Positions 28,745 through 44,574 of a stretch of DNA of 64,000 nt are shown here, piece after piece. The position numbers were made by a program, and so were the translations under genes. The stretch is from Candidatus Pyrohabitans jungbluthii (GTDB lineage Archaea; Hydrothermarchaeota; Hydrothermarchaeia; Hydrothermarchaeales; BMS3B). The notes under the pieces were generated by a model. It saw only the letters and a program-made list of their open reading frames with translations. It searched no databases and was not told where the DNA came from. Numbering within the stretch: position 1 is the stretch's first letter; each line of letters begins with the position of its first letter. The stretch is from contig MTMD02000002.1 in NCBI GenBank assembly GCA_002010065.2, forward strand, positions 288,001 through 352,000, in the 5' to 3' direction.

Positions 28745-28747
28745 GTG

Positions 28748-29449: not shown

Positions 29450-30224
29450 CCGCATACCTCCTTTTTGGAATTGCCTCAAACGCAAAGAGGATAAGGAAGG
29501 AGATAAGGATGAGCAGGGCAGCGATCACCAGAGCCTTTTCCACGCTCACCTGCAGCGCTGAATACACAGCTAGGGGCATGGTCTGCGTCCTGCCAACGAA
29601 GTTGCCTGCGAACATTATGGTTGCGCCAAACTCGCCCATTGCCCGCGCCCAGCTCATAATAACACCTGCCAGAATAGCGCTCCGCGCTAAGGGCAGAGAG
29701 ACCTTAAGAAAGGTGGTGAACTCACTCGCGCCCAAGGTGTATGACGCTCCCTCAAAAGTTCTGCTAACGCTGGCGAAGCCCGCTCTTGCGGAGCGCACAT
29801 AGAGGGGTAAGGCAACGAAGGTTTGAGCAATTACAACGGCTGCGGTGGTGAAGGGCAAAGCTATGCCTATGCTGGCGAGGTACTTACCTAGGATACCCTC
29901 TCTGCCAAAGGCAGCGAGCAGCGCGATGCCTGCGACGGCTGGCGGTAGAACCATGGGCAGGTTCAGAGCCACCTCCAGAAAGCGGCGCAGCGCAGAGTCG
30001 CTCCTCGCCAAGTGGTAAGCCACGGGTGTGCCGATAATCACAATGAGCAGCGTAGAGAGCGTCGCCGTAAGAAGGCTGAGCTTTACTGCTGCAAGCACCT
30101 CATAGCTGAGCAGCACCTCTGGCGAGGCGTTGCCAGCACTTATGAGCACCGAGGCTACTGGGAGAAGAATGAAGGCAGCCACACCAATGCCTGTGAGGGC
30201 GCGCGTGAGCGCAAAGGCGTTCAT
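29442..30224 (-). CDS. modB: Molybdate ABC transporter permease
   Basis: LPMVLPPAVAG, WARAMGEFGAT, TQTMPL. Confidence 0.92.
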   Translation of the reverse strand: MNAFALTRALTGIGVAAFILLPVASVLISAGNASPEVLLSYEVLAAVKLSLLTATLSTLLIVIIGTPVAYHLARSDSALRRFLEVALNLPMVLPPAVAGIALLAAFGREGILGKYLASIGIALPFTTAAVVIAQTFVALPLYVRSARAGFASVSRTFEGASYTLGASEFTTFLKVSLPLARSAILAGVIMSWARAMGEFGATIMFAGNFVGRTQTMPLAVYSALQVSVEKALVIAALLILISFLILFAFEAIPKRRYADA

Positions 30225-30976
30225 TGCCCCACCTCGAAACCATGTTTTTGCAGAATTTCTCTACCTCTGGAGGAGAGGAGGAAGTTGATAAACTCCTGGG
30301 CTAGCTCTTTATTCTTGGAGTGGGAGAGCACGCCCACGTAGTAGCGCGGAGATACGTTCGCCTCCGGTGGAAGTTCTATTACCCTAACCTTGCCTCTTGC
30401 AGCAAGCGCGTCTGTGGCGTAGACGAAGCCGGCGTCTGCCTCGCCCAGGGCTACCTTAGATAGCACACCTTTAACGCTGTCCTCCTGAGACACAACACGG
30501 GAGAGCACCTCTTCAGCGAAGCCAGCACCGTAGAGCGCTTCTAAATTAAAGAGCGCCTCTATTGCGTATTTACCAGCTGGCACTGCTTCGTTGGCGATGA
30601 CTAACTTTACATCACCGCGAAGGTCTTCCACGTTTTTTATGTTAGCCGGGTTGCTTTCGGGCACAACTATCACAAGCCTGTTTTTTGCAAAGGCGATGCT
30701 CTCATCGACGTAGCCCTGGCGGAGTAGGGCGCACATGTGCTCTTCGTTGGCAGAGGCGAAGATATCCGCATAGGCGCCCTGCTCTATCTGGACGCGGAGC
30801 GTATTTGAGCCCGCAAAGTTGAGCTCCACTTTAATGCCATGCTGTGCTTCAAACTCCTGGGCAAGCTCCTGAAAGGCTTCAGTCAAGCTTGCGGCGGCGA
30901 AGACGGTGATGCCATCTCCGCCAGAGGTGCAGCCCGCTGTGAGGGCTACGAGGAGGAGCACACTAAGAAAGCGCAT
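30221..30976 (-). CDS. modA: Molybdate-binding lipoprotein
   Basis: Lipobox TAGC, VFAAASL, FAGS, VPAGKYA, DAGFVYATD. Confidence 0.92.
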   Translation of the reverse strand: MRFLSVLLLVALTAGCTSGGDGITVFAAASLTEAFQELAQEFEAQHGIKVELNFAGSNTLRVQIEQGAYADIFASANEEHMCALLRQGYVDESIAFAKNRLVIVVPESNPANIKNVEDLRGDVKLVIANEAVPAGKYAIEALFNLEALYGAGFAEEVLSRVVSQEDSVKGVLSKVALGEADAGFVYATDALAARGKVRVIELPPEANVSPRYYVGVLSHSKNKELAQEFINFLLSSRGREILQKHGFEVGQ

Positions 30977-31559
30977 GCTGAGCTATGCGGTAATAGCCAA
31001 CGCCTGCACAGCTTCTGCACACTCGCGTACCGTTCTCGCCAACGCTCAGCGACTCGGGCACAAGCTCACCGCACCGGGAGCAGCGCACTATGGAAGAGTT
31101 CTCAAAGAGGCTGGTAAGCTCAATCTTCACAGGTATAATTTCCAGATACTCCTCGCTGAGCTCTAGAAGCGCACGGGCGAGCTCCTTCTCCTCTTCCCTT
31201 GTGAGCCTTCCTTCGCGGAGCATCCACTTTTTCATGAGCGCTGAGTGCTTCCACGCGTCGCGGCGCAATGCAACGCGGTAGCCCTGCATAGTATCTACCC
31301 TGCCCACTGTCAGCGCCAGCTTGCCATAGTTTTCGATAAAGGCATTGCCATGTCCCAACGTCGCACCCGTCGCCGCCTGCATCCCGTCGGCGAGGCATCG
31401 CGCGGTTTCGCTTATGGCGATAAGCTTCTTGCTCCCTCGCTTAGTATTGAGCTTCTGCAGCGCCAGCGTTGCCATGCGTATTCCCAGCGCTATGCCTGGA
31501 GCAAGGTGACCATGCAGTTTCTCAGCCAGCTCCACCACTTCTTCTTCCCTCAACTCCAT
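30963..31559 (-). CDS. FmdE-family protein with C-terminal zinc finger
   Basis: LHGHLAPGIALGIRM, CLADGMQ, GKLALT, CSRCGE...CRSC. Confidence 0.85.
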   Translation of the reverse strand: MELREEEVVELAEKLHGHLAPGIALGIRMATLALQKLNTKRGSKKLIAISETARCLADGMQAATGATLGHGNAFIENYGKLALTVGRVDTMQGYRVALRRDAWKHSALMKKWMLREGRLTREEEKELARALLELSEEYLEIIPVKIELTSLFENSSIVRCSRCGELVPESLSVGENGTRVCRSCAGVGYYRIAQHALS

Positions 31560-31568
31560 ATCACCACC

Positions 31569-32792
31569 TCATGTAAAGAGATGCACCTTTATCTCCTCTC
31601 CTCGCTTAGTGTCCCGCTCTATTATCGCGTAGCCATCCACCAGAGCACTTCGCAGGTTTGAGGCTATGGCAGAGACGTTGTACTTCTCGCCGCTCTTCAT
31701 CAGGGGCATCTCACTGCCCTCGAAGCCAATCGGCTTGGCATAGCCGTTCTCTAGGTATACAAACACCAGGTTGGCGATGTCTGCGGCGTCGGTGTCCTTG
31801 GTTGAGAGCAGTATATCCTCGGTTATCCTCGCATAGAGGAAGGGCTCCTCACTCTTACCCAGGAAGTACCTGCGCAGGTGAAGCTGCGCCGCAACTAGCG
31901 CACCTGTGGGCTTGCCAGGCAGAGCGAACACGGGCGTATTCTCGACTATGCCCACTGCTATAGGCTTCCCGGGGCGCGTCTTGACCTTGTACAGCACCAC
32001 CTCGCCCAGCTCCTCTATAGCGCGCAACACGTAGTCGCGCCTGCCTACGCTCACACCGCCGCTGGTGACAACGCAGTCGTAGCGCTTCGCTGCGCTGGCA
32101 AGCGCTTGCTTTGTGGCTTCGTAGTCATCCTCAATTGCGCCGAGATAGCTCGTCTCGCATCCCCACTGCTCCAGCAGAGCCATTACCACGAAGGAGTTTA
32201 TGTCGCGGAGCAAGCCCCTGGCAATTTCATTGCCCGTTGCGAGCACAGCTACTCGAGGCTTGCGATACACTTCCACCTCTTCGATGCCCTGGCCTTTTAG
32301 AATTCCAAACTCCTGTGCTCTTATCCTTGTTTTCGCTCTTAGGATAACCTCCCCCTTGCGGTAGTTGCTTCCCTGAGGCACCACCTTGGTCCCCTTCTCA
32401 ATGGGGATACCGTACAGCAATTCGCCCTCAAGGCGGGCATCCTCTAAGCGGAGTACGCAATCTGCACCCGGAGGTAGGAACGCTCCCGTTGCGATGTACA
32501 TCGCCTCGCCTTCGCGAAGCTCAGGTAGAGACTCATAAGCATCGCCAGCGTAGATGCTCCCTACCACGCGCAGAGGATAACGTTCAGCATCTTCGCTACG
32601 CATTGCGTAGCCATCGTAGCTGGCTATGTCGTGGGGTGGTGAGTCCTCTGTGGCGAGGATATCCTTAGCCAGCTCCCGTCCGAGGAGCGAGAGCTCCACC
32701 CTCGCAACTTCCGTCTCGCGATTGAAGTAAAACCCCTCTCTTAGCGTGTGGATAATCTCCCGCGCTCTGCTCAGAGGAACCAGCGTTTCCAC
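31569..32792 (-). CDS. moeA: Molybdopterin molybdotransferase
   Basis: SYDGYA, IATGAFLPPGAD, TGNE, TSGGVSVG, PGKP, LPGKP. Confidence 0.92.
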   Translation of the reverse strand: METLVPLSRAREIIHTLREGFYFNRETEVARVELSLLGRELAKDILATEDSPPHDIASYDGYAMRSEDAERYPLRVVGSIYAGDAYESLPELREGEAMYIATGAFLPPGADCVLRLEDARLEGELLYGIPIEKGTKVVPQGSNYRKGEVILRAKTRIRAQEFGILKGQGIEEVEVYRKPRVAVLATGNEIARGLLRDINSFVVMALLEQWGCETSYLGAIEDDYEATKQALASAAKRYDCVVTSGGVSVGRRDYVLRAIEELGEVVLYKVKTRPGKPIAVGIVENTPVFALPGKPTGALVAAQLHLRRYFLGKSEEPFLYARITEDILLSTKDTDAADIANLVFVYLENGYAKPIGFEGSEMPLMKSGEKYNVSAIASNLRSALVDGYAIIERDTKRGEEIKVHLFT

Positions 32793-33104
32793 CCCTCATC
32801 ACCTAAACGTTTCTATTTAAATTTCTCTAATATTTAAACAAATACAAATATAAAAACCTTTTTAGAAAAAAAATTTTATAATTTAAACCGAAGCAATTTT
32901 AATTTTATAAAAGCTTTATATTAGTAGATTCAATTATTTACTGGTTCAGATATTTTATTATATTTTATATACCGCTTTAGTATATAAGAATGAAAAATCT
33001 TAATTTCTACAATTATTGAAAAATAATTCTAAAAAGGTTTTTATTTTACCACCACACTAAAAAATTAAAATGTATTTTTAATTTAAAATGGGGGGAATGA
33101 TAGA
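32793..33104. promoter_or_regulatory. Very AT-rich divergent promoter region between moeA and the molybdoenzyme operon
   Basis: About 310 bp non-coding with several TTTATA/TATAAA boxes; individual sites not resolved. Confidence 0.55.
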
Positions 33105-35741
33105 ATGAAGATATCTAGGAGGGAATTCTTGAAGAAGTCGAGCCTTATAGCAGGAATGGCTGCTCTTGGCTCGCAGGTGGTTTCGCTGAGCAGTGTAGCC
33201 GCAGAGGCGAGCAAAGCTCAGGGAAAAGTTAAGCAGGTTGCAGCCACAGTAAGCGAAGATGTTCTCATACCCAGCACGGACATAATGTGTGTGAACTTCT
33301 GCGGAATAAGGGTGAGGAGGGTAAACGGCGTAATCCGTGCGATCTACGGCAATCCGGCGAGCCCCTACAACGTTGGACACCTATGTCCCAAGGGGCAGAG
33401 TGGTATTTTTGATGTGTACAATCCATACAGGGTAAAGGCTCCGCTCAAGCGCACAAATCCCAACAAGGACCCGAGGGAGGATCCAAAGTGGAAGGAGATA
33501 AGCTGGGAGGAGGCATTAAACGAGGTTGCAGCAAAACTCAAGGAAGTTAGAGCAAAAGACCCGAGGGGTTTGACATTCTTCTGGGGTCACGGTAAATATC
33601 TGGTGCAGGACAAGTACCTGAAAGCCTTCTGCAAAGCCTTTGGCACGCCAAACAATGTTCACCGCACCACCGTATGCGAAGCTGCTCGCCACGTTGCGGA
33701 TGAGCTCACCTGGGGTGGACATGGATTTCTCCCGGATCTGGAGTACACCCGCTACTACGTGAACATGGGGGCGAACTTCACAGAGGGGGAGCAGTGGGCT
33801 CGCTGGCTGGACAGAACATGCATGGATGCCATAGTTAACAGGGGACTCAAGCTCGTTGTGGTTGAGCCCAGGCTGAGCAATCTCGCAGCGAAAGCTCACG
33901 AATGGATACCAATAAAGCCTGGTACAGACGTGGTATTCCTCTTAGCCATGGCGAAAGAGCTCATACTCAACGGCTACGTGGATAAGGAGTTTCTGATAGA
34001 GTACACAGATGCACCCTTCTTAGTTGGCGAGGATAAGAAGTTCCTGAGAGATGAGAACGGCAATGCTCTAGTGTGGGACAAGAAAGCAAGCCAGGCGGTA
34101 CCCTATGATGATGCCGAAGAGATAGCTCTTGATGCAAAGGTTACAGTAGATGGCAAGGAGTACAGAACCGCCTTCAGGGTGTTCAAGGACTATGTGCTCA
34201 GCCTAAGCCTGAGTGAGGCAGAAGAGATAACAGGCGTGCCCGCAGAGACCATAAGGAAGGTCGCCAAGGAGTTTGGGGAGAACGCCCACATCGGCGCCAC
34301 GGTGGTAATGGACGGCAAGGTGCTGCGCTATCGCCCCGTTGCCATACATACCTTCAGGGGAATGAGCGCAAAGGAGTATGGAAGCCAGCAGTGGAGGGCA
34401 GCCTGGATTGTGCAAATGCTTGTGGGCAACTTAGATGCTGTGGGAGGAATTCGACTATACCATGCAAACCCGGACTACAAGAACATGAAGCCCTCCACGT
34501 GCGAATACCCGCCCAGCAGGGTAGACCTTGCAGGAAGCGTATTCTTCCCACATGCCACGCACAATGTGGCGCAGCAGCCTGCCCTTACGTTTGCGGAGCC
34601 TGAGAAGTACGGCTTGCCCTATAAGCCGGAGATGGCGCTGGTGTATGCCACCAACAGGCTCATCTCCACCTCTGAGGTGGAGAAGCAGATAGAGGGCTTC
34701 AAGAAGGTATACATGGTAAACATAAACCTCGTGCTGGACGAGATTGCCCAGATGTCTGACATAGTACTGCCAAACAAGAGCTACCTCGAGTGCTGGCACT
34801 TCAGCCCAACAAGGTGGACTCCTGACTCGAGCCACAGCGCAATCCGCCAGCCGATTGTAAATGCCTACAACCTGCCCTACCAGGACTTCGACATCCTCTG
34901 GGAACTGGCGAAGAGGGCTGGCTTCTTGGATGAGTACGTGGATGCCATAAACAAGAACTGGAATCTCAAGGACGACAAGAAGTTCGAGAAGGGCAGGGAC
35001 TACGACGCCAAGGAATCGGTGAAGATTATATGGGAGGCAAAGACAGGCAAGCCCCTCGAGTATGCCATAAAACACGGTCTTGTGGCGAAGAAGGTGAGCG
35101 TGGAGGAAAGGTACCTGCATGATGCTGAGAAGTTCAGAGGCAAGGGCAAACCAAAGATGCACTTCTATGCAGAGCAGCTTGTTCATACAAAGGAGAAAGT
35201 CCTCGAAATCGCAAAGAAGGAGCCAAAGGTCAGGAAGGTGTTTGAGGAGTGGTACGGAGAGACCGATCTTGAGAAGCTCCTTGACATAAAGCTTTCGCCA
35301 ATACCCCTGAAGGAGCACGCCTTCCCGGTGCCGCACAAGCAAGCAAAGGACTACCCGCTGTATCTCATAACCTACAAGAGAATGTACAGAAACCAGGCAA
35401 ATCCAGATGCCTTAAACCCGGTTCTCAACGAGGTTGCCCACGACTCCAGCTACAATTACATGCTGATTAACACCGTCAAGGCCAAGGAGCTCGGGATAAA
35501 GGATGGCGACGAAGTATGGATAGAGTCCAGAGTTGGAAAGGTCAAGGCAATAGCAAAGCTTACTGAGGGAATTCGCCCGGACACGGTGGCTGTGAGCTAC
35601 CACTATGGAAGGTTCTCTTCAGCCTTCCCGGAGTATGCCAAGAAGGGCACTGCAATAAACTTCGTTCTGGAACTCCATCCAGACATGATCTCAGGGCACA
35701 ACTCCTTCCTAGACACCAAGGTTAAGGTGTACAAGGCGTGA
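33105..35741 (+). CDS. Tat-exported Mo/W-bisPGD oxidoreductase catalytic subunit (PsrA/ArrA/ArxA-like)
   Basis: SRREFLK Tat motif; DIMCVNFC...LCPKG; FGTPNNVHRTTVCE; C-terminal molybdopterin-binding domain. Confidence 0.88.
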   Translation: MKISRREFLKKSSLIAGMAALGSQVVSLSSVAAEASKAQGKVKQVAATVSEDVLIPSTDIMCVNFCGIRVRRVNGVIRAIYGNPASPYNVGHLCPKGQSGIFDVYNPYRVKAPLKRTNPNKDPREDPKWKEISWEEALNEVAAKLKEVRAKDPRGLTFFWGHGKYLVQDKYLKAFCKAFGTPNNVHRTTVCEAARHVADELTWGGHGFLPDLEYTRYYVNMGANFTEGEQWARWLDRTCMDAIVNRGLKLVVVEPRLSNLAAKAHEWIPIKPGTDVVFLLAMAKELILNGYVDKEFLIEYTDAPFLVGEDKKFLRDENGNALVWDKKASQAVPYDDAEEIALDAKVTVDGKEYRTAFRVFKDYVLSLSLSEAEEITGVPAETIRKVAKEFGENAHIGATVVMDGKVLRYRPVAIHTFRGMSAKEYGSQQWRAAWIVQMLVGNLDAVGGIRLYHANPDYKNMKPSTCEYPPSRVDLAGSVFFPHATHNVAQQPALTFAEPEKYGLPYKPEMALVYATNRLISTSEVEKQIEGFKKVYMVNINLVLDEIAQMSDIVLPNKSYLECWHFSPTRWTPDSSHSAIRQPIVNAYNLPYQDFDILWELAKRAGFLDEYVDAINKNWNLKDDKKFEKGRDYDAKESVKIIWEAKTGKPLEYAIKHGLVAKKVSVEERYLHDAEKFRGKGKPKMHFYAEQLVHTKEKVLEIAKKEPKVRKVFEEWYGETDLEKLLDIKLSPIPLKEHAFPVPHKQAKDYPLYLITYKRMYRNQANPDALNPVLNEVAHDSSYNYMLINTVKAKELGIKDGDEVWIESRVGKVKAIAKLTEGIRPDTVAVSYHYGRFSSAFPEYAKKGTAINFVLELHPDMISGHNSFLDTKVKVYKA

Positions 35742-35755
35742 GGGGGTGAGGGAAG

Positions 35756-36427
35756 ATGGTTAAATATGGTCTTGTCATCGACCTGAAAAAGTGTATAGGC
35801 TGCAGGAGCTGTGTCGCTGCGTGCAAGATCGAGAATATGGTTCAGCCTGGTAATTACTGGAACTTTGTCCTCGAGTACGAGCAGGGCAAGTATCCGAATG
35901 TTCGCAGAGTCTTCGTTCCCATAAATTGCCAGCACTGCGAGAATCCGCCCTGTGTTAAGGCATGCCCGGCAAAGGCGATAAGCAAGAACGAGTATGGCGT
36001 TGTGCTGATAGACTACGACAAGTGCAAGGGCTACAGGTACTGCATCGCCGCATGCCCCTACGGAGTAATCCACTTCATTGACAAGATAAGGTACCTCTAT
36101 CCAGAAGACAATCCCGATAAAGCTCCCACACCGTATGAGCAGATTCCCGCCGAAGCGAGACATCCACTGCACAGAAAGAAGCCTGGCATTGCTGAGAAGT
36201 GTACCCTGTGCTGGCACCGCATTGAGAAGGCCCTGAAAGAAGGGAAGGAGCCGGGAAGCGATTACGACACATCGCCAGCGTGCGTTCCCGTTTGCCCAGC
36301 AGGTGCGAGATATTTCGGCGACCTCGATGATCCGAACAGCGTGGTTTCAAAGCTCATCGCTGCGAGGCGGGCGATCCAGCTCAAGAAGGAGTACGGCACA
36401 AGACCGCAGGTTTACTACCTGGTGTGA
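35756..36427 (+). CDS. Four-cluster Fe-S subunit (PsrB/ArrB/NrfC-like)
   Basis: CIGCRSCVAAC, CQHCENPPCVKAC, CKGYRYCIAACP, CTLC...ACVPVCP. Confidence 0.92.
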   Translation: MVKYGLVIDLKKCIGCRSCVAACKIENMVQPGNYWNFVLEYEQGKYPNVRRVFVPINCQHCENPPCVKACPAKAISKNEYGVVLIDYDKCKGYRYCIAACPYGVIHFIDKIRYLYPEDNPDKAPTPYEQIPAEARHPLHRKKPGIAEKCTLCWHRIEKALKEGKEPGSDYDTSPACVPVCPAGARYFGDLDDPNSVVSKLIAARRAIQLKKEYGTRPQVYYLV

Positions 36428-36437
36428 GGTGATGAAG

Positions 36438-36833
36438 ATGAAGTTTAAGTTTCTGGTGTTCGCTTCCCTTGCTCTTCTCTTCCTCTTTGCAGCGTGCGCC
36501 CAGAAGCCAGAGGTCGAGGAGAAGGTGATTGAGAAAGAAGTGCCTATGAACCTCCCTGATACAGCGAAGAAGATAGCGGCTGGCGAAATTGAAGTTGGTG
36601 AGGAGTTTGGCATGGAGATTGGGCAGCGCTACCATACAATACACGCAGATACCCTCGGCTTAGCCTGCACCACCTGTCACGTTAAGAGCTATGCTGATGA
36701 CTACATCTACCAGAGGAAGTACAAGGTTCCTGTGAGAGGCGCCCCCGGACCTGTGGACAGAGGCGTCTGCCTGGGCTGTCACAAGGAGAATGGACCGGCG
36801 GCGACATCGCTCTATGGCACAGCCAGTGACTGA
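36438..36833 (+). CDS. Diheme c-type cytochrome lipoprotein
   Basis: Signal peptide with FAAC lipobox; CTTCH and CLGCH; start 36432 or 36438. Confidence 0.8.
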   Translation: MKFKFLVFASLALLFLFAACAQKPEVEEKVIEKEVPMNLPDTAKKIAAGEIEVGEEFGMEIGQRYHTIHADTLGLACTTCHVKSYADDYIYQRKYKVPVRGAPGPVDRGVCLGCHKENGPAATSLYGTASD

Positions 36834-36864
36834 CCTCTCTTTTCTTTCTTTTTGAGGTGCTAAT

Positions 36865-37560
36865 ATGGAGCAGCTTAATAAGCTTGCGGAGAACAGGAGC
36901 AGGATTTACGGCTTTCTCTGCGAGTTTTATAACGGGGTGCCCAGAGAGGAGTTCGTGAAGAAGCTTCTTAGTGAGGACTTCCTTAGGGAGTTGAAGAATC
37001 TAGCAACCCTCGCGGAGGGTGAACTCAGAGAGGGTGCAGAACTTTTAGAGCAATTCCTCAGGCTTAACTCTGAAAGAAACATAGAGGAGCTGACAGAGCA
37101 GCTTGCGGTTGAATTCACAAGGCTTTTCAGAGGCATAAAGCCAAAGTACAGTCCCCCACCACCGTATGAGTCTGTGTACAGAGACGAAGGCAGGGTGATG
37201 GGCGCTTCTACGCTTCAAGTGATGAACACTTACCTCGATGCTGGTTTTGCCCTGAACGAGGAATACGGAGGACCCCCGGATTATATAGGCACAGAGCTCA
37301 AGTTTCTTGCGCTTGCGAGCTACCGCGAGGCAGAGAGCTGGGGAAAGGGCGATAGAAGGGAAGCGGAGAGATTGCTTAGGGTACAGCAGCGCTTTATTGA
37401 AGAGCATGCTCTGGCATGGATTCCAAGGTTCTGCGATGTAATACTGCAGGAGGCTGAGAGCGAGTTTTATAAAGGTGTGGCGAAGCTTACTCGCGGGTTT
37501 CTGAGACTGGATGCAGAGCAGATAGCAGAGACCCTAAAGCTTGTGGAGGAAGAAGGATGA
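36865..37560 (+). CDS. TorD/DmsD-family redox enzyme maturation chaperone
   Basis: EFTRLF, PPYESVY, PPDYIGTELKFL, EH...WIPRF. Confidence 0.92.
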   Translation: MEQLNKLAENRSRIYGFLCEFYNGVPREEFVKKLLSEDFLRELKNLATLAEGELREGAELLEQFLRLNSERNIEELTEQLAVEFTRLFRGIKPKYSPPPPYESVYRDEGRVMGASTLQVMNTYLDAGFALNEEYGGPPDYIGTELKFLALASYREAESWGKGDRREAERLLRVQQRFIEEHALAWIPRFCDVILQEAESEFYKGVAKLTRGFLRLDAEQIAETLKLVEEEG

Positions 37561-38141
37561 AGGAGCTCGATTTCGCAATTGCTATTCACGGGCATAAGGC
37601 TCCGGGAATAGTGCTTGGCGTGAGGATGGCAAAGCTTGCGTATGAGCTTCTTGGCAAGCCCAAGCGAGGCAGGGGCTTAACAGGCATCGTGGAAACAAAA
37701 GTCTGTCTTCCCGATGCTCTGATGGCAGTCGCAGGCACGACGCCGGGCAATGGAAACCTCATAATCTATGACCTGGGCAAGCTTGCCCTCTCTCTCACCA
37801 AATATCCCTCAGGAGAGGGATATAGAGTTGCGCTCAGAAGCGAGGCAGCAGGCTTAGACGAAGCACTTGAAAAGTTCATGTACCGCAAGGGTAAGCTCAC
37901 CCACGAGGAAAGAGACAGGGTGGCGGACATATTTTACAGCATGGATGAGAAGTACTTTAAGGTAGAGAAGGTCAAGCTCACCCTGCCTTTAACACCAACA
38001 CGCACACCCATAGCCAAGTGCTCTTCTTGCGGCGAGCTTCAGCCTCAGGGATTTATGCTTAATGGAAGCTGCAGGGTATGCGCGGGCGAGAGCTATTTTG
38101 AAAAGCTGGAGGAGGTGATAACGTATGTTAGGACAGAGTGA
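37557..38141 (+). CDS. FmdE-family protein (second paralog)
   Basis: [33 protein letters not shown]...CRVC. Confidence 0.85.
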
Positions 38142-38271
38142 GCTTCTTATAATCTTGGGCATTGTTGTTCTGCTTTTCGGCGCAAATAAGCTGCCTGAGC
38201 TGGCACGCTCACTTGGCAGAGCCAAGGTGGAGTTTAAGCGTGGCATGGAGGATGAGGGTAGCGAGAAATGA
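38125..38271 (+). CDS. tatA: TatA/E subunit (not in ORF track)
   Basis: [48 protein letters not shown]. Confidence 0.9.
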
Positions 38272-38289
38272 TCGGCTCTGGAGAAGTGG
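38218..38289 (+). repeat. 72-bp repeat, inverted copy at 43263..43334
   Basis: 71 of 72 positions identical by manual comparison; spans the junction of the two tat genes. Confidence 0.85.
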
Positions 38290-38486
38290 TCGTCATAACT
38301 CTTCTCGCCCTCCTCTTCTTTGGCCCTGAAAAGCTTCCTGAGCTGGCAAGAAGTCTTGGAAAGGCGTATGCCGAGTTTAAAAATGCCCAAGAGGAAGTTG
38401 AAAGGCAGATAAATAGGGAAATGCTGGAAGAGAAAAATATAGATATAAAAAAAGATATTGAATTGATAAATGAGGAAGCAGATTAG
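38268..38486 (+). CDS. TatA/B-family subunit
   Basis: [24 protein letters not shown]. Confidence 0.88.
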
Positions 38487-38532
38487 CTATGCTTCTCAAA
38501 AAATTTATAACTATGGCAATAAATGTAAAATT

Positions 38533-39438
38533 ATGCGTTTCCTTATTTTACTAATCCTGCTGCTCTTCTCTGCCTGCACCGCAGAGGAGCAGGCTATCGA
38601 GGTGAACTTCAGCGATGTGGTTGAGATTAGAAATCCGGGAGAAGAAGATAGCGCTGTGGTAATTGGGGTTTCCAACATTCTCTCACCTGTGGAGACGGTA
38701 ACCTACTATGAAGACCTCTTTGACTACCTTTCAAAAAAGCTTGGAAAGAAGGTAAAACTTGTACAGCGCAGCAACTATGCCGAGATGAATGAACTTTTGA
38801 GGCTGGGGAGAGTTGACCTCGCCTTTGTGTGCTCTCGAGCTTATATAGCCGGAGCCATGCAGTTTGGGCTGAAACTCCTCGTGGTGCCTGTGGTTTACGA
38901 TGAAGGACCTGTTTACTACTCCTACATAATAGTGAATAAAGACAGCAACATAAACAGCTTCGTAGAGCTTCGTGGGAAAAGCTTTGCCTTCGCAGACCCT
39001 CTCTCAAACTCAGGGGAGCTTTACCCCAGGTATCTGCTTGCGAAGATGAACGAAACCCCGGACACCTTCTTCTCCCACTACTTCTACACCTACAGCCACG
39101 ACAAGAGCATCGAAGCTGTAGCCTCTGGCATAGTTGACGGCGCTGCAGTGGACAGTCTGATATGGGACTATAAAAATATGACTGAGCCATGGGTAACCTC
39201 CCGCACGAGGATAATCAAGGTTTCTCCACCCTTTGGCATTCCACCTGTCGTGGCAAGTCCATACAGCGATAAGGAACTGGTTGAAGAGATAAGGAACATA
39301 CTCCTGAGTATGCATGAGGATGAGGATGGCAGAAAGATACTAAGGAAGCTCCACATAAAGCGCTTCATACTCCCTGAAAATGCTTCCTACGCCTCCATAG
39401 AAGAGATGCTGCACGTGGTTGAAGGAAATGTTACCTGA
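38533..39438 (+). CDS. PhnD-like oxyanion-binding lipoprotein (AioX/ArrX/ArxX-like)
   Basis: FSAC lipobox; QRSNYAE, DLAFVCSRAY, YYSYIIV, DPLSNSG, SHDKSIEAV, PPFGIPPVV. Confidence 0.8.
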   Translation: MRFLILLILLLFSACTAEEQAIEVNFSDVVEIRNPGEEDSAVVIGVSNILSPVETVTYYEDLFDYLSKKLGKKVKLVQRSNYAEMNELLRLGRVDLAFVCSRAYIAGAMQFGLKLLVVPVVYDEGPVYYSYIIVNKDSNINSFVELRGKSFAFADPLSNSGELYPRYLLAKMNETPDTFFSHYFYTYSHDKSIEAVASGIVDGAAVDSLIWDYKNMTEPWVTSRTRIIKVSPPFGIPPVVASPYSDKELVEEIRNILLSMHEDEDGRKILRKLHIKRFILPENASYASIEEMLHVVEGNVT

Positions 39439-41446
39439 GGTAAAGTTTGGCGTCAGGGCAAAGTTCGTCCTTTCAATAATACTCGCTCTTTTAATTCTTG
39501 GCGCCCTTTCAGCAGTTATAATGCAGACTGTCTTAAAGTCGGTGCTCCTACAGGGGCTCACCAGAGACGGCTTTACCCTTGGTGAAAACCTCGCCACGGC
39601 TATAACAGAGCCCCTTCTGACAGAGGATGTGGTCTCCCTGCATCGCATGCTGAAGGAGTTTAAGTCCAGCCGGGAGGATGTTGCTTACTTATACGTGCTC
39701 AATCAGAATGGCGAAGTTGTGGCGAGCACTTTTGAGGGGGGCTTCCCGAGGGGGCTGCTAAACCTTCGCGGAGCTGGAGTAACGACCATAAAGAATGAAA
39801 GGGGAGAGCACATCCGCGACCTTGCCATACCGGTGCTTGAAGGCAAGGCTGGAGAGCTCCACCTTGGGCTCACAGAAGAGCTTGTCAGAGCAAGAGTTTC
39901 TGAAGCTACGCGAAAGCTGATGCTCGGCATAACTTTGCTTTTGCCAATAGCTGTGCTTGTTGGCTATGCCTTTGGAAACCTTATCACCACGCCTATAAAA
40001 GAGCTGGAGGTAGGAGCGAGAGCCCTGGAGAGGGGAGAGCTTGATTACAGGATAAAGCTTCGAAGCAGAGACGAGTTTTCTGTGCTTGCAGAAGCCTTCA
40101 ACAGCATGGCTTCTGAACTTGAAAAGAACATCCAAGAAATAAAGAGATACTCATGCTCTCTAGAAAAGCTGGTGGAGGAGCGCACCAAGGAGCTTCTCCT
40201 TCTCCAGAGGATTAACAACCTTTTAAATACCGGTGCAAGCCTTGAGGAGATTCTCGATGAGATTACCAAGGGGATAGTGAAGGTCTTCGGCTACGACGCC
40301 TGTGCTGTGCACCTGCTCAAAGGCGAAGATACGCTGGTGTGCAGAAGCTACTACATGGATTCAGCGCTGATAAAAAAGCTTGAAGAACTCACGGGCAAGA
40401 GGACAGACGGGTATGAGATGAAGCTCACGGAGGACAACCCCATAAGCAGGATAGTTTTTGAAAGGGAGCCGTTTTTAACTGACGATGTGGAGAATCTGAT
40501 AAAATACCATACTCAAGATAGAAAGATAAGAGTATTGGCGAAGGTTATAACTAAGCTTGTGCCTGCACGCTTTGGTTTGGGGATCCCCCTGATATCCAGG
40601 GAGAGGGTTGTGGGAGTTATCGGAATAGGGAGCAGAAAACCCCTGGAAGATAGCGATGTGACTAGGCTTATGAACTTCGCCTCCCAGGCGGGCATCGCTG
40701 TGGAGAAGGCTATACTCGAGGAGAGGCTACTTGAATACTCTCGAGAGCTTGAGCGTAAGGTAGAGGAGCGCACAAAACAGCTTCTCCACGCAGAGCGCTT
40801 AGCTACAATAGGTACCCTTGCCTCAGGAGTAGCGCATGAGATAAACAACCCCATAACAAGTATAATGCTTGATGCTGAAAGGATCAGGGACGAGATGCTC
40901 GATGAGAAGGAGGTAAAGGAGATAGCAAAGGGGATAGTAAAACAGGTGGAGAGGATTCAGAGGATAACCCGAAGCCTGCTCATGTTTTCAAGGCATGCGG
41001 AGATGGAGGCAAGGGAGGTTGACCTCAACCAGATTGTGGAGGAGTCTCTGAATGTGCTGAAGCCGAAGCTTAAAAGAGTGACGGTGGAGAAGAGGCTGGA
41101 AAAGCTACCCCACGTGTGGGGCGACCCGGCTCAGCTTCAGCAGGTCTTTGTCAACCTTATTCTCAATGCTGTGCAGGCAATGCCTGATGGCGGCAGGCTA
41201 ACAGTAATAACAAGAAGGGAAGGTAGGGAGGTGGTGGCGGAGGTTAGCGACACAGGTGTGGGCATACCTGAGGAGCACTTAAGCAAGATATTTGACCCCT
41301 TCTTTACGACAAAGAAGGTAGGGGAGGGCACGGGATTAGGGCTGAGTATCTGCTTAGGCATAGTTGAGCGCCACAATGGCAGAATAGAAGTAAAGAGTAA
41401 AGTAGGAGAAGGAACAACATTTACTGTGTGCCTGCCTCTGAGGTGA
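39419..41446 (+). CDS. Membrane sensor histidine kinase (HAMP-GAF-HisKA-HATPase)
   Basis: Two TM segments, DEFSVLAEAFN, GVAHEINNP, QVFVNLILNA, DTGVG, GTGLGL. Confidence 0.93.
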   Translation: MKEMLPEVKFGVRAKFVLSIILALLILGALSAVIMQTVLKSVLLQGLTRDGFTLGENLATAITEPLLTEDVVSLHRMLKEFKSSREDVAYLYVLNQNGEVVASTFEGGFPRGLLNLRGAGVTTIKNERGEHIRDLAIPVLEGKAGELHLGLTEELVRARVSEATRKLMLGITLLLPIAVLVGYAFGNLITTPIKELEVGARALERGELDYRIKLRSRDEFSVLAEAFNSMASELEKNIQEIKRYSCSLEKLVEERTKELLLLQRINNLLNTGASLEEILDEITKGIVKVFGYDACAVHLLKGEDTLVCRSYYMDSALIKKLEELTGKRTDGYEMKLTEDNPISRIVFEREPFLTDDVENLIKYHTQDRKIRVLAKVITKLVPARFGLGIPLISRERVVGVIGIGSRKPLEDSDVTRLMNFASQAGIAVEKAILEERLLEYSRELERKVEERTKQLLHAERLATIGTLASGVAHEINNPITSIMLDAERIRDEMLDEKEVKEIAKGIVKQVERIQRITRSLLMFSRHAEMEAREVDLNQIVEESLNVLKPKLKRVTVEKRLEKLPHVWGDPAQLQQVFVNLILNAVQAMPDGGRLTVITRREGREVVAEVSDTGVGIPEEHLSKIFDPFFTTKKVGEGTGLGLSICLGIVERHNGRIEVKSKVGEGTTFTVCLPLR

Positions 41447-41450
41447 GAGC

Positions 41451-42107
41451 GTGGCGAGAGTTCTTGTGGTTGACGACGACGAAGCTGTGTGTAGAAGTTT
41501 GAAACAGACGCTAACCTCAAACGGCTTCAGTGTGGATGCCACAACTTCACCACAGGAGGCTATTGAACTTCTGCGCGATAACAGCTATGACATTGCAATC
41601 TACGACCTTGTAATGCCCGACATTGACGGCATTGAGCTTCTCAGAGAGACAAAAAAGATAAACTCTGCCCTGCCTGTGGTTATGATAACAGCTTTTGCAA
41701 CAATTGAGAGCGCCGTCGAAGCGATGAAGCGGGGTGCAAGTGACTATATAGAGAAGCCTTTCACCAAGAAGGATATTCTCACAATTGTGAGGCGTGCTTT
41801 AGAAGAGGCCAAGTTCAGAAAGAGCATTTTAGAGCTCTCCACCAGTAGAGAGGTTGAAGAGGTTATAAGCTCCCTCAACTCCCCGCTGAGGAGATTGATA
41901 CTCAGCTACCTTGAGGAGAGGGGGGAGAAGCTCAGCTTCACCCAGCTCCAGCGAGGCGTAGGCGAGCGCGATGCCACAAAGTTCAACTTCCACCTGAGAA
42001 AGCTGAAGGAAGCAGGTCTGGTGGAGCAGGACGAAGATAAGCGATACACACTTACACAGAAGGGCAGGAAGGCTTTGGAGGTAATAAGCAGCCTTGCTGA
42101 GGTGTAG
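41451..42107 (+). CDS. Response regulator: REC plus ArsR-like winged helix
   Basis: VVDDD, DLVMPDIDG, KPF; SPLRRLIL...FNFHLRKLKEAGLV. Confidence 0.88.
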   Translation: MARVLVVDDDEAVCRSLKQTLTSNGFSVDATTSPQEAIELLRDNSYDIAIYDLVMPDIDGIELLRETKKINSALPVVMITAFATIESAVEAMKRGASDYIEKPFTKKDILTIVRRALEEAKFRKSILELSTSREVEEVISSLNSPLRRLILSYLEERGEKLSFTQLQRGVGERDATKFNFHLRKLKEAGLVEQDEDKRYTLTQKGRKALEVISSLAEV

Positions 42108-42143
42108 CTAGCAGGCAGATTTTTATCTCTCCATGCTTTTGAA

Positions 42144-42300
42144 TGGACCCTGATTATGATGTTCAGCCTGAAGGGATACCTTATTGTACAGACCCCGCTG
42201 GATGTCATCCACATCGCCATTCCCCTCCTGTTCTACTTCGTAATTAAATAGGAGCTGACTATTCGAAGACAGTGCCCTGTCTTTCACCACAGCCAGCAAT
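42144..42300 (+). pseudogene. acr3: Decayed fragment of an Acr3-family arsenite efflux gene
   Basis: TLIMMFSLKGYLIVQTPLDVIHIAIPLLFYFVI then stop; GADYSKT; frameshift to ALSFTTASN; matches the Acr3 C-terminal half as recalled. Confidence 0.75.
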
Positions 42301-42364
42301 AAGAGTGTTAAGAAAGGTATTCTACAATCAATTTTTAAAATATTCCATAAGTATCAAAAAAATT

Positions 42365-43015
42365 TTATAATCTCTCCGTCTCCAGTCTCAACAACAGTCT
42401 TTCCACTATTGCCACACCTTCGCTGGTTAGCTGATACTGTCCTGCCCTGTTTTTACTCACTATTCCCGCCTCGCTGAGAACGCGAAGATGAAAGCTCAGT
42501 TTTGATGGGTCGTCCATCTCTATGCTCCTGGCAACCTCAGAAAACCTCCTCGCGCCTGCGTGAAGGAGGTAGAGAGCTATCTTCTTGCGTATCGGGTTTG
42601 AAAGCGCCTTGATTACAGCATCATTAAGCCTCGCCTCAACTTTGCGCTCTAACCTCGCCTCTTCTAAGGTTTTCTTGACGATACTCACCAGCTCGCCTAC
42701 ATTGAAGGGCTTTACAAGAAAGTCACTCGCTCCGAGCTTCATCGCCTCCACCACGTCAGCTATAGAGGGAAAGGCGCTGATTATTATCACCTTGGTCTCC
42801 GGTGAAATCCTCTTTATCTCATCCAGTGCTTCTAGGCCACGGATATCTGGAAGCACCAGGTCGAGGAGCACCAGGTCAGGTTGATTTTCCGTCAGCCTGG
42901 CAATCCCATCGGCGGCGCTCTCCGCGGTCAACACCTCAAAGCCATACCTGCGCAGTGCCTTTTCCAGCACGCTTGTAGTGTGCCTATCGTCATCCACAAT
43001 AAGTATGGTGCTCAT
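42365..43015 (-). CDS. Response regulator: REC plus ArsR-like winged helix
   Basis: IVDDD, DLVLPD, KPF; LSNPIRKKI...LSFHLRVLSEAGIV. Confidence 0.88.
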   Translation of the reverse strand: MSTILIVDDDRHTTSVLEKALRRYGFEVLTAESAADGIARLTENQPDLVLLDLVLPDIRGLEALDEIKRISPETKVIIISAFPSIADVVEAMKLGASDFLVKPFNVGELVSIVKKTLEEARLERKVEARLNDAVIKALSNPIRKKIALYLLHAGARRFSEVARSIEMDDPSKLSFHLRVLSEAGIVSKNRAGQYQLTSEGVAIVERLLLRLETERL

Positions 43016-43284
43016 ATCCCCTTTCCAGTCTTTTCCTTTATTTCATCCAGAATCTGGGCGATTGATTTATTCTCTGTGGATATGCCCAGATTTTCCGCGA
43101 TTTCCGTAAACTCCCTCTTATACACGCTCAGCTCTCCTGTCAGATCCCTCTCCAGCTCTTCCGCTGCTCTTCGATACTCTGCCACTGCCTTGCCCATACT
43201 CCTTGCCAGGTCTGGAAGCTTCTCAGGCCCAAAGAAGAGGAGGGCGAGAAGCGCTATGACAGCCACTTCTCCAGAGCCAATCAT
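43012..43284 (-). CDS. TatA/B-family subunit
   Basis: [25 protein letters not shown]. Confidence 0.88.
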
Positions 43285-43334
43285 TTCTCGCTACCCTCAT
43301 CCTCCATGCCACGCTTAAACTCCACCTTGGCTCT
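43263..43334 (-). repeat. Inverted copy of 38218..38289
   Basis: 71 of 72 positions identical by manual comparison. Confidence 0.85.
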
Positions 43335-43430
43335 ACCAAGGCTGCGGGCAAGCTCAGGCAGCTTATTTGCGCCGAAGAGAAGCACAACTAAAGCAAGCAC
43401 CACCAGAAGTTCTGTGTTCCCTACCAGCAT
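43281..43430 (-). CDS. tatA: TatA/E subunit (not in ORF track)
   Basis: [49 protein letters not shown]. Confidence 0.9.
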
Positions 43431-43581: not shown

Positions 43582-44574
43582 ATGAGCGGAAGGAAAACAT
43601 TGAGATGGGTGGCAATACTTCTGCTGGTTCTCCTCGCAGCATACGTCTCAGGCAAAAATAGCGGGGACATGCCTGAAGTTGAGTTAGAGAAGTCTCATTA
43701 CTACTATGATGTGCTAGTGCATGGGGGTTACCTGTACGCCACCTCCCCCTGGGGCTTGGAGGTGTTCTCTATTGACGGGGGAAAAATTTCCCTCACAGGT
43801 GGTTATGAAACCAAGGGTGAGGCTCAGACGCTTGCTCTCTCCAAGGAAAGACTCTACCTCAGCGATGCCACAGGCAGGCTATATGTGTTCGATGTAAGCA
43901 CGCCCGCACGACCGCGTTTGATAGCTGAGCTAGAGCTGGACAAAATCGCCCAGAGGATTGTAATTTCTGGAGATAGGGCATATCTAGCGTGTGTCTCTTC
44001 TGGGCTGGTAATTCTGGACCTTCAGAACCTTGAAGAGGTTGGATTCTACAAGCCCAAAAACTACAGCTATCCTAAGGGAATATGCCTCCAAGATGGAAAG
44101 CTGTACATCGCAGACTTCACCATGAGGCTTTACGTCGCAGACGTGGTGGACGACTCCCTAATTTTTCTGGCCTCCCACCCAACCAGCAGCGTGGCCCACG
44201 ACGTTCTCGCTTGGGAGAGCTTTGTCTACGTTGCAAGCTCCGACGGGGGCGTGGACGTATTTAAGGTCTCTGGAAAAGAGCTGGAATTGGTACAGAACCA
44301 TCCTCTCCCCGGCTTTGCTCTTCGCCTGGCCAGGTATGGAAATTACCTCCTGGTTACCCTCGCCGATGAAGGTGTGGCTTTGCTCGAGATACAGAAGGAC
44401 GGCAGGCTTGAGCTTGTTGCACAATACGACACCCCTGGCAACGCGTACGGCATAGCTCTTGCCAATGGCTACGCATATGTGGCGGACTATGACGGAGGCA
44501 TAGTGGTGTTTGACCTCTCGCAGCTTCCGGAGCTTGTGCCAGTGGATTTCGCTAGGCCAGAGGTGAGCCCATGA
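43582..44574 (+). CDS. Exported LVIVD-repeat beta-propeller protein
   Basis: N-terminal signal/TM; repeated YxYVA..GL.I.D units; YDTPGNAYGI. Confidence 0.8.
   Translation: MSGRKTLRWVAILLLVLLAAYVSGKNSGDMPEVELEKSHYYYDVLVHGGYLYATSPWGLEVFSIDGGKISLTGGYETKGEAQTLALSKERLYLSDATGRLYVFDVSTPARPRLIAELELDKIAQRIVISGDRAYLACVSSGLVILDLQNLEEVGFYKPKNYSYPKGICLQDGKLYIADFTMRLYVADVVDDSLIFLASHPTSSVAHDVLAWESFVYVASSDGGVDVFKVSGKELELVQNHPLPGFALRLARYGNYLLVTLADEGVALLEIQKDGRLELVAQYDTPGNAYGIALANGYAYVADYDGGIVVFDLSQLPELVPVDFARPEVSP

Follow-up and report, generated by a model that had tools for sequence, protein, structure and literature searches.

Organization of the gene cluster

Within the 64-kb stretch of Candidatus Pyrohabitans jungbluthii DNA analysed here (the window), ten co-directional genes on the (+) strand (33105–42107) form a single tightly packed block. 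They encode a molybdenum- or tungsten-dependent (Mo/W) oxidoreductase, which we call MoA, its electron-transfer and maturation partners, and a three-component sensor system (X, S and R) of a type that points to arsenic. Adjacent genes overlap or lie up to 31 bp apart; the one possible exception is a gap of 46 bp upstream of X, which would follow from a start of this gene at 38533. A previous sequence-only reading had listed a molybdoenzyme exported by the twin-arginine translocation (Tat) system, an Fe-S subunit, a dihaem cytochrome, TorD, FmdE and two tat genes, and all of these were found in place. The binding protein, kinase and regulator that it placed after the enzyme genes were confirmed by Pfam, and the LAFVCS segment that it singled out in the binding protein holds Cys121. 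The features of the locus are:

32793–33104: AT-rich divergent promoter region between moeA (−) and the enzyme operon (+)
33105–35741 (+): MoA, Tat-exported catalytic subunit with a Mo/W-bis(pyranopterin guanine dinucleotide) (bisPGD) cofactor, 878 aa; Pfam Molybdop_Fe4S4, Molybdopterin and Molydop_binding
35756–36427 (+): FeSB, four-cluster Fe-S electron-transfer subunit; Fer4_11 and other ferredoxin models
36432–36833 (+): cytC, small dihaem cytochrome c with two CxxCH motifs (CTTCH, CLGCH)
36865–37560 (+): TorD/DmsD-type Tat proofreading chaperone; Nitrate_red_del, E 1.2e-29
37557–38141 (+): FmdE-like protein with a Cys-rich C-terminus; PF02663, E 7.6e-28
38125–38271 and 38268–38486 (+): two tatA genes; TatA_B_E, E 5.1e-15 and 1.4e-16
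38470–39438, likely start 38533 (+): X, PhnD-family extracytoplasmic ArrX-type binding protein; Phosphonate-bd, E 2.8e-64
39419–41446 (+): S, membrane histidine kinase with transmembrane segment, outer domain, transmembrane segment, HAMP, GAF, HisKA and HATPase (Pfam)
41451–42107 (+): R (RR1), response regulator of 218 aa with a receiver (REC) domain and an archaeal winged helix (DUF7347/HTH_20, ArsR-like; Pfam)
42117–42254 (+): relic of an ACR3-family arsenite efflux gene, 46 residues; TIGR00832

The open reading frame (ORF) listed for cytC spans 36303–36833, and the ATG at 36432 is its likely start; the resulting N-terminus is signal-like or lipobox-like. The FmdE-like protein is presumed to be a maturation factor of Mo/W enzymes.

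MoA belongs to a separate enzyme family

MoA carries a twin-arginine signal (SRREFLK, residues 4–10), matches its Pfam models above their gathering scores and has a presumed metal ligand, Cys191, as found in exported, Cys-ligated Mo/W-bisPGD enzymes of the DMSO reductase (MopB) superfamily. Its active-site region reads WGHGKY (residues 160–165) and HRTTVCEAARH (residues 186–196). C191 is invariant in all 29 aligned members of the MoA family, as are G163, Y165, R187, E192 and H196, while H162, K164, H186, T188 and T189 are conserved in at least 90% of them. In the reference alignment 20 of 20 family rows show x-G-K-Y and HR..CE. RGRY is present in four ArrA references and GRGWG in the ArxA of both arx plasmids used as references (L170, L171), where MoA has GHGKY; the alignment thereby bore out the earlier observation that MoA matches neither signature.

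In an NCBIfam scan MoA reached no family cut-off. It scored 205.3 bits on the ArrA model NF041714 (cut-off 1600), on which five ArrA orthologues, taken as references from 301 Campylobacterota genomes, reach 1069–1097 bits. The score was 75 bits on the TtrA model, where the match covers the C-terminal domain only, and 37 bits on the AioA model. Among solved enzymes ArrA (6cz7) was the best sequence match (E 4.3e-48, ~23% identity); identity to ArxA was 25%. ArrA was also the best fold match (E 4.7e-45, template modelling score 0.72/0.77) to an AlphaFold model of MoA with a mean predicted local distance difference test score of 86.4, and PsrA came second by sequence and by fold. A search for ArrA in five of the locus genomes gave nothing at E 1e-50, and a tblastn search of plasmids for named references recovered PhsA and two arx plasmids and no ArrA.

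Three trees were calculated: a FastTree tree of 137 rows, a quick IQ-TREE search under LG+G4 with 74 rows, and a quick IQ-TREE search under LG+C20 with 55 rows and the long-branched NapA as outgroup. Support values are from the Shimodaira–Hasegawa approximate likelihood ratio test (SH-aLRT) only and the searches were quick, so that deep relations are tentative; references for Pyrobaculum, TtrA, SrdA and SrrA were not among the rows. The MoA family was monophyletic (support 100) and outside the PhsA/Psr clade in all three trees, and the enzyme is thus not nested in PsrA/PhsA. In the NapA-rooted tree a clade of ArrA and ArxA (10 rows, 100) stands apart from the MoA clade (10 rows, 100). Both belong, together with Ttr-like enzymes and other unnamed lineages, to one clade (99) from which the Phs/Psr-type enzymes branch earlier; the Ttr-like enzymes of loci L204 and L212 form a clade of their own.

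A word-indexed search returned at least 120 MoA homologues with 52–89% identity and generic names only, among 1510 matches; the closest named relatives among the matches listed were metagenome-assembled genomes of Hydrothermarchaeota. In a library clustered at 50% identity, three full-length representatives were at least 40% identical to MoA and the rest at most 39%. Since none of the 20 nearest representatives scored above any NCBIfam family cut-off, the tree around MoA is uncharted. The hosts are mainly bacterial (WOR-3, Kryptonia, Aminicenantes, Thermodesulfobacteriota, Gammaproteobacteria), whereas the SSU rRNA of the genome studied here is archaeal. Five archaeal copies, that of the window included, form one clade nested next to WOR-3, Kryptonia and Aminicenantes copies (100, FastTree), and these bacterial sister copies are thermophilic. 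Such a placement suggests that the archaeal MoA was acquired from bacteria by inter-domain transfer. Of the “distinct archaeal clade” proposed earlier, the distinctness from named clades remains, whereas the family is mostly bacterial with the five archaeal copies nested inside it.

We found no paper that describes the MoA family. A deep clade beside ArxA/ArrA with Methanoperedens ASW-3 and Acetothermum (Leu et al. 2020, PMC7327174) and unnamed Cys-ligated lineages (Wells et al. 2023, PMC10100899) have been mentioned, and the MoA family may or may not be among these.

For the comparison of gene neighbourhoods, 158 loci were used: 57 distinct MoA-family loci (6 species genomes and 51 metagenome contigs; L082, a duplicate of contig L004, was left out) and 101 other molybdoenzyme loci as controls. 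Many contigs end inside the operon. After clustering of ORFs, the conserved core MoA-FeSB-cytC-TorD was represented in 51, 37, 33 and 36 of 58 sources, respectively; TorD occurs in 36 of the 57 family loci. Four related archaeal loci have the same gene order as the window, with MoA proteins 76–79% identical.

The X sensor and its recurrence in the family

Compared with solved proteins, X is closest to ArrX from Chrysiogenes arsenatis (E 9.3e-62, 212 bits), followed by AioX (E 1.3e-40, 143 bits), PtxB (E 8e-21) and PhnD (E 1e-12). Mapped through an alignment to 8ed5 and 33 relatives, the pocket residues Y103, C121, Y149, S179, S181, H210 and D228 of X reproduce all seven pocket residues of AioX (Y88, C106, Y131, S161, S163, H192 and D210) given by Badilla 2018 (PMC5908839). 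In the same study, AioX and ArxX bound arsenite only, ArrX bound arsenate with a dissociation constant of 1 µM and phosphate with 150 µM, and binding of thiosulfate, tetrathionate, sulfate, selenate, molybdate or antimonite was seen with none of the three. X has a lipobox-like LFSAC motif. X, S and R are contiguous (38470–42107) and lie downstream of the enzyme genes, which gives the arrangement of binding protein, kinase and regulator beside a molybdoenzyme. The Cys of LAFVCS had been taken as a pointer to arsenite. This did not hold, because the residue is common to AioX, ArxX and ArrX (34 of 34 rows; Badilla 2018, PMC5908839) and X is nearest to the arsenate-binding ArrX (212 versus 143 bits).

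Co-occurrence of homologues with arsenic-type genes, the absence of which would have counted against the sequence-only reading, was found: X-like genes are present at 14 of 57 MoA-family loci compared with 2 of 101 controls (Fisher p 1.3e-5, for loci that are not independent). In 10 bacterial loci X is located directly upstream of MoA, mostly divergent as in arxXSR, and the pocket is kept in 17 of 17 X copies, one of them with Glu for the final Asp. An X-domain tree (34 rows, careful search) separates two sides with a split support of 100/100. On the ArxX side are the Sulfuricella and Cereibacter ArxX and all 13 bacterial MoA-family copies; in 8 loci the bacterial X is 55–64% identical to Sulfuricella ArxX, and the one copy tested, that of L127, scores 196 bits with AioX versus 135 with ArrX. 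The ArrX side holds the four archaeal copies and the sensors adjoining canonical RGRY-ArrA genes (L208, L213). That both arsenic-sensor lineages were recruited independently is the strongest argument that the MoA family handles the As(V)/As(III) couple, and two sensor lineages on one enzyme family also suggest that the direction may differ between members. In addition, genes for ArsC-like low-molecular-weight phosphatases occur in 5 of 57 family loci and distant ACR3-like genes in 3 of 57, with none of either in the 101 controls, and the window has a true ACR3 relic of its own.

X homologues were found in 24 of 151 genomes of one bacterial phylum. Many of these are ~570 aa long, and the second half was also PtxB-like in L208, the one tested. 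In L208 and L213 the X homologue stands beside a canonical RGRY-ArrA with TorD and FmdE-like genes, in L204 and L212 beside Ttr-like enzymes of 1026–1072 aa.

Electron-transfer partners

The best NCBIfam match of FeSB is ArrB, at 178.8 bits against a cut-off of 450, and the protein is 41% identical to Sulfuricella ArxB. FeSB carries no signal peptide; presumably it crosses the membrane jointly with MoA. The small cytochrome cytC is present in 30 of the 57 MoA-family loci and in none of the 101 other molybdoenzyme loci, and is a family-specific electron partner. Conservation in cytC extends to both CxxCH motifs, to one Tyr and to two His outside these motifs, but to no Met; the haems are accordingly probably bis-His-ligated, which suggests a low potential. 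No NapB-family match was obtained for cytC in Pfam. NapC/CymA-type quinol dehydrogenase genes flank 8 of the 57 family loci (Pfam Cytochrom_NNT, E 4.2e-40 in the one tested), and CymA serves the Shewanella Arr (PMC2762525). The ten cluster genes, all otherwise assigned by Pfam, include neither an NrfD/PsrC anchor gene nor an ArxB2 gene. In the genome of the archaeon 17 ORFs contain at least two CxxCH motifs.

Several further electron-transfer and transport genes were seen. Outside the window, the genome encodes an ORF of 3318 residues with 69 CxxCH motifs, followed by several smaller multihaem cytochrome genes (contig C2, 536644–546597); a cytochrome of this size could be part of the network that exchanges electrons with cytC. 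In 17 MoA-family loci (L085–L127, e.g. L127:13291–14898) TorD is followed by a polyferredoxin of ~535 aa with several 4Fe-4S domains, which is weakly ArxB2-like (21–29% identity where the alignment covers most of ArxB2); none occurs in the window. In L003–L006 a conserved secreted protein of ~340 aa with a G-Y-M-F-G-D-F/Y-Y motif is encoded directly upstream of MoA. It looks like an outer-membrane anion porin, a designation read from the sequence only, as it matched neither Pfam nor NCBIfam. Downstream of the operon, these loci have a TauE/SafE-family permease gene and cofactor genes.

Kinase, regulator and promoter

S is 30% identical to Sulfuricella ArxS over 295 residues, and the REC domain of R is 38% identical to that of ArxR. 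R is not of the AioR/ArxR type, which combines an NtrC-type REC domain, a sigma-54 AAA+ module and a helix-turn-helix; the reference ArxR has 446 aa and is annotated as sigma-54 dependent. The likeness to the AioXSR/ArxXSR triad asserted in the sequence-only reading was therefore retained for the contiguous X, kinase and regulator and given up for the regulator, which is of the REC-winged-helix and not of the sigma-54 type. Sigma-54 is not known from archaea, and a winged helix in place of the sigma-54 module fits this absence. The bacterial X-S-R sensor may have been adapted to archaeal transcription through its winged-helix output.

The promoter region (32793–33104) contains two palindromic TAAAAAnnTTTTTA boxes and inverted repeat arms at 32847–32883 and 33011–33047. 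Both TAAAAAnnTTTTTA boxes are conserved in the related loci L007 and L081 despite diverged flanking DNA, and they are candidate sites for the regulator.

Interpretation of the cluster

We propose, with confidence that stops just short of even, that the product of the cluster is a soluble respiratory Mo/W-bisPGD enzyme, exported by the Tat system, which acts on the arsenate/arsenite couple and belongs to a family apart from ArrA, ArxA, AioA and TtrA-type enzymes. The arsenic link of the family is well supported by context, and we also count in its favour that ArrA is the closest solved enzyme by sequence and fold and shares a clade (99) with MoA. In the archaeon the enzyme would most likely be an arsenate reductase fed through cytochrome c. 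Arsenate reduction is favoured by the ArrX-type sensor, by the probable bis-His haems and by the NapC/CymA-type genes in 8 family loci, although the case for this direction is weak. If the arsenic assignment is true, the MoA family would represent a new active-site solution for the arsenate/arsenite couple; the family is uncharacterised, and the chemistry that it performs is probably a known one, achieved with novel wiring and a novel active site. Of the interpretation given in the sequence-only reading, the arsenic-type context and the separateness in motif and tree persist, while the archaeal clade, the arsenite-pointing Cys and the AioR/ArxR-like regulator were abandoned.

In the mechanism that we envisage, the surface-anchored, ArrX-type X would bind arsenate and signal through the membrane kinase to the REC-winged-helix regulator, which would switch on the operon from the promoter at 32793–33104. 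The metal cofactor might then be loaded with the help of TorD, FmdE and the neighbouring cofactor genes, and the two TatA proteins could assist in the export of the folded MoA-FeSB pair. Outside the membrane, electrons would pass from a cytochrome c network to the dihaem cytC, over four Fe-S clusters and to the Cys191-ligated metal, where arsenate held in a basic pocket (H162, K164, R187, R195, H196) would be reduced to arsenite. Gene content, the separateness of the family, the type of the sensor and its recurrence at family loci are observed, whereas substrate, direction, haem ligation, the target of the regulator and the electron donor are inferred.

Several results weigh against this interpretation. 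Substrate and direction are read from neighbouring genes only. The top NCBIfam match of MoA is PhsA (NF012032), at 274.1 bits against a cut-off of 694 and over the N-terminal third only, and in all three trees the family lies outside the ArrA+ArxA clade. With ArrA residues numbered after Shewanella ANA-3 as cited in PMC13685797, the RGRY motif (R163–Y166) aligns to W160-G-H-G163 of MoA, so that R165 becomes His and Y166 Gly; the arsenate-binding residues H189, K198 and Y210 are replaced by R187, H196 and F208. Only the Mo-ligand Cys193, equivalent to C191, is kept among the active-site positions compared. The arsenite-type sensors of bacterial members point to oxidation in at least part of the family. 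No X gene is seen at 43 of the 57 family loci, many of them on short contigs, nor within flanks of up to 10 kb in L003–L006, the thermophilic bacterial loci with the nearest copies to the archaeal ones. Of 20 regions around ArrX-side sensors in one phylum, 2 contain a canonical ArrA, 2 another large molybdoenzyme and 16 none, so that arsenate is only a presumed ligand for this sensor lineage as a whole. The arsenic-type neighbours are themselves ambiguous: the ArsC-like proteins match thioredoxin-type ArsC best (65 and 137 bits for the two tested, cut-off 174), the ACR3-like gene of the relatives reaches 51 bits against a cut-off of 283, and the counts are inflated by kinship, as the five ArsC-bearing loci amount to about three lineages and the three ACR3-like loci to one. 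In the genome of the archaeon a tblastn search found no NapC/CymA homologue, and there is no intact acr3. Finally, a cultured WOR-3 isolate, which may or may not carry a MoA-family enzyme, did not respire arsenate (PMC12285271).

Alternative explanations

An anaerobic arsenite oxidase of a third kind beside Aio and Arx would run the same couple in the opposite direction, delivering electrons from arsenite through cytC to the cytochrome c pool, for example to downstream nitrate/nitrite reductases. We regard this as unlikely for the archaeon. The bacterial members do have sensors on the ArxX/AioX side (55–64% identity to Sulfuricella ArxX; 196 versus 135 bits), in the divergent XSR layout of arx clusters, and AioX and ArxX bind arsenite (PMC5908839), but the sensors of the window and of three archaeal relatives fall on the arsenate-binding ArrX side, and sensor type may reflect induction by the product and not the substrate. 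The spacing G161-x-G163 is nearer to GRGWG of ArxA than to RGRY of ArrA, and in vitro both Arr and Arx reportedly work in either direction (PMC13685797). Aio enzymes work with a soluble c-type cytochrome as partner and have no quinol-oxidising anchor. The cluster resembles them in this respect. A multihaem-cytochrome-b fusion in 4 family loci also speaks for oxidation, and napA and an octahaem cytochrome gene located 4.7–10 kb downstream of the cluster would suit a nitrate-linked form of it. Against such an electron flow, cytC lacks a conserved Met, so that its haems may be of low potential and poor acceptors from the arsenite couple, and 8 family loci have a NapC/CymA neighbour. The enzyme could also be a reductase of sulfur or selenium compounds of the Psr/Phs/Srr/Ttr kind (polysulfide, thiosulfate, tetrathionate, selenite or thioarsenate-free sulfur species) with a sensor that was re-tuned or has but a loose connection to the enzyme, which we judge improbable to a similar degree. 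PhsA as top NCBIfam match (274 bits) and PsrA as second-best structure speak for it, but the PhsA score is well under the cut-off of 694, MoA lies outside the PhsA/Psr clade in three of three trees, and no NrfD/PsrC anchor is found among the ten genes. Its relatives come from sulfidic hot habitats and in part from sulfur-metabolising lineages (Caldimicrobium, Chromatiaceae), in 4 bacterial loci the operon is followed by a gene of the TauE/SafE sulfite-exporter family, and most family loci show no X gene. The ligand choice of the X family is not set by pocket residues alone (Badilla 2018, PMC5908839); nevertheless, the solved and assayed X-family proteins bound no thiosulfate, tetrathionate, sulfate or selenate, and among the 158 loci ArsC-like and ACR3-type neighbours were seen only with the MoA family.

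Another arsenate-like oxyanion, such as antimonate/antimonite, phosphite, vanadate or tellurate, with a sensor specificity shifted to match, is a much more remote explanation. It would suit a GHGKY and HR..CE..RH motif unlike that of every characterised arsenic enzyme, the relationship of the X family to the phosphite binder PtxB (E 8e-21), the phosphate binding of ArrX (PMC5908839) and an ArsC-like gene that in L005 was seen, by eye, inside a phosphate-transport (pst-type) operon. However, X is far closer to ArrX than to PtxB or PhnD, and nothing points positively to any such substrate. Least probable of all is a recently transferred and decaying island that no longer functions in the archaeon. 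The acquisition of the family from bacteria, the reduction of the adjoining acr3 to a 46-residue relic and the bracketing of the sensor module by an inverted tatA-tatA-regulator duplication would be in line with decay, but 10 of 10 genes have intact full-length frames and the catalytic and cluster-binding residues are kept. Moreover, four related archaeal loci with the same gene order and 76–79% MoA identity indicate purifying selection, and a metagenome contig (L083) is 99.75% identical over 1201 nt (41900–43100).

Comparison with known systems

The assignment to the arsenate/arsenite couple can be set against characterised systems. The cluster is most similar to ArrAB with CymA (Shewanella sp. 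ANA-3, 6cz7; Chrysiogenes arsenatis arrAB-arrXSR) in its Tat-exported, Cys-ligated Mo-bisPGD subunit with an N-terminal 4Fe-4S cluster, its four-cluster Fe-S subunit, its solubility without a built-in anchor and its X-S-R sensor, in which X is nearest to the solved ArrX. TorD and FmdE-like accessories are also found in the canonical arrA clusters L208 and L213, and NapC/CymA-type neighbours in 8 MoA-family loci. In contrast to ArrAB, the cluster has its own dihaem cytochrome c gene, MoA stands in a separate clade with RGRY replaced, and the regulator has an archaeal winged helix and no sigma-54 AAA+ output. With Arx (arxXSR and arxB2ABCD; Sulfuricella denitrificans plasmid pSCD, L170; Cereibacter azotoformans plasmid pORIO3, L171; Alkalilimnicola ehrlichii) it shares the superfamily, an XSR set beside the enzyme genes, bacterial sensors 55–64% identical to Sulfuricella ArxX and 41% identity of FeSB to ArxB. 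It differs in the lack of GRGWG, of an NrfD-type ArxC and of ArxB2, in the 25% identity of MoA to ArxA, in the position of MoA outside the ArrA+ArxA clade (100) and in a window sensor on the ArrX and not the ArxX side. Relative to the AioX, ArxX and ArrX proteins themselves (PMC5908839; 6x6b, 6esk, 8ed5), X gives a strong full-length match with seven of seven pocket residues, including the Cys that PhnD lacks, and its gene stands beside a molybdoenzyme, adjoined by genes for a histidine kinase with HAMP domain and for a response regulator; X is set apart by what appears by eye to be an archaeal lipobox-type anchor, by an extra GAF domain in the kinase and by the REC-winged-helix regulator.

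PsrABC/PhsABC (Thermus thermophilus, 2vpw; E. coli plasmid phsABC, L169) belong to the same superfamily, with PhsA as top NCBIfam and PsrA as second-best structural match; unlike them, the cluster has no NrfD/PsrC or cytochrome b anchor, and MoA is ~120 residues longer and in a separate clade. The “alternative” arsenate reductase of Pyrobaculum, a member of the TtrA/SrdA family, is likewise an archaeal, exported, Cys-ligated molybdoenzyme, for which arsenate reduction has been proposed or shown (Wells 2023, PMC10100899). MoA is of a different family, with only 75 bits on TtrA, and is ~150–200 residues shorter than the Ttr-like enzymes of L204 and L212. For the wiring, NapAB-NapC offers an analogy, as there a soluble molybdoenzyme is served by a small dihaem cytochrome c. 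Similarly, cytC is encoded beside MoA and some family loci have a NapC/NirT-family tetrahaem quinol dehydrogenase, whereas cytC has no NapB Pfam match, the cluster has an extra four-cluster Fe-S subunit, and NapA is distant enough to be the tree outgroup.

Taken together, a broader scenario appears possible to us, if somewhat doubtful. The MoA family would be a further, unnamed arsenic-respiring Mo/W family beside Aio, Arr/Arx and the Ttr type, wired through its own dihaem cytC and not through a quinol-oxidising anchor, and spread over many uncultured bacterial phyla and, by inter-domain transfer, into Hydrothermarchaeota. It would run both ways, with the sensor lineage marking the direction (ArxX/AioX-type for arsenite, ArrX-type for arsenate), and in the archaeon X-S-R would have been rewired from a sigma-54 to a winged-helix output. 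Surveys of arsenic cycling count aioA, arrA and arxA, and a family that fails those models would be invisible to them. The MoA family does fail them, yet public data contain hundreds of its members, many of which are wired to arsenic sensors. If our proposal is true, dissimilatory arsenic metabolism extends to Hydrothermarchaeota, WOR-3, Kryptonia, Aminicenantes and others, through a new enzyme lineage for the arsenate/arsenite couple and an overlooked branch of microbial arsenic cycling. One enzyme family with opposite sensor types would then also be a natural experiment on catalytic direction, and the archaeal cluster would show how a bacterial three-component sensor can be made to suit archaeal transcription.

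Flanking regions and further observations

Upstream, the cluster is adjoined by a block (26280–32792) of Mo/W cofactor genes and a molybdate/tungstate-type ABC transporter, with assignments from Pfam:

26280–26816 (+): MoaE; MoaE
27841–28374 (+): MobB; MobB
28748–29485 (−): ABC ATPase; ABC_tran
29442–30224 (−): permease; BPD_transp_1
30221–30976 (−): binding protein; SBP_bac_11
30963–31559 (−): FmdE2, second FmdE copy; FmdE
31569–32792 (−): MoeA; MoeA_N and MoCF_biosynth

Cofactor genes flank bacterial MoA-family loci as well. No tRNA gene is present in the 64-kb window.

The acr3 relic noted in the sequence-only reading is real: TIGR00832 matches 42117–42254 with E 9.8e-10 and 38.1 bits over model positions 215–260 of 327, with one TAG inside, which is far below the cut-off for a full-length ACR3 (282.8 bits) and marks a relic and not a gene. 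Where the window has the relic, the related loci L007, L081 and L002 have a distant ACR3/BASS-like gene instead. As the relic shows no similarity to this gene in protein or DNA, it is not its remnant; it matched the true ACR3 model instead. The near-identical stretch of the metagenome contig L083 (window positions 41900–43100) includes the relic and RR2, a paralogue of RR1, so that the loss of acr3 is common to at least one other assembled copy of the population.

A 280-nt inverted repeat (38126–38405 versus 43147–43426) is 79% complementary. It reflects a second tatA-tatA pair on the (−) strand (43281–43430 and 43012–43284), followed by RR2 (42365–43015, −), and the two inverted tatA pairs enclose the X-S-R module, the acr3 relic and RR2. 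These pairs may mark how the sensor module was inserted. In L081 the matching interval contains no X gene, and the only match to the kinase lies further downstream.

Beyond the repeat, a separate respiratory module on the (+) strand (43582–54357) comprises NapA (46811–49291) and, assigned by eye, a lipoprotein resembling a beta-propeller, a kinase whose outer domain contains CxxCH, a REC-winged-helix regulator, NapG/H-like Fe-S proteins and an octahaem cytochrome. Elsewhere among the compared loci, another unnamed molybdoenzyme clade (L041, L044, L037, L045, L047, L057) of ~820 aa has the motif W-F-S-E-D-H-S-F. An X-like sensor, a kinase and a regulator are located near it in 2 of the 6 loci, and it may be another arsenic-sensor-linked family.

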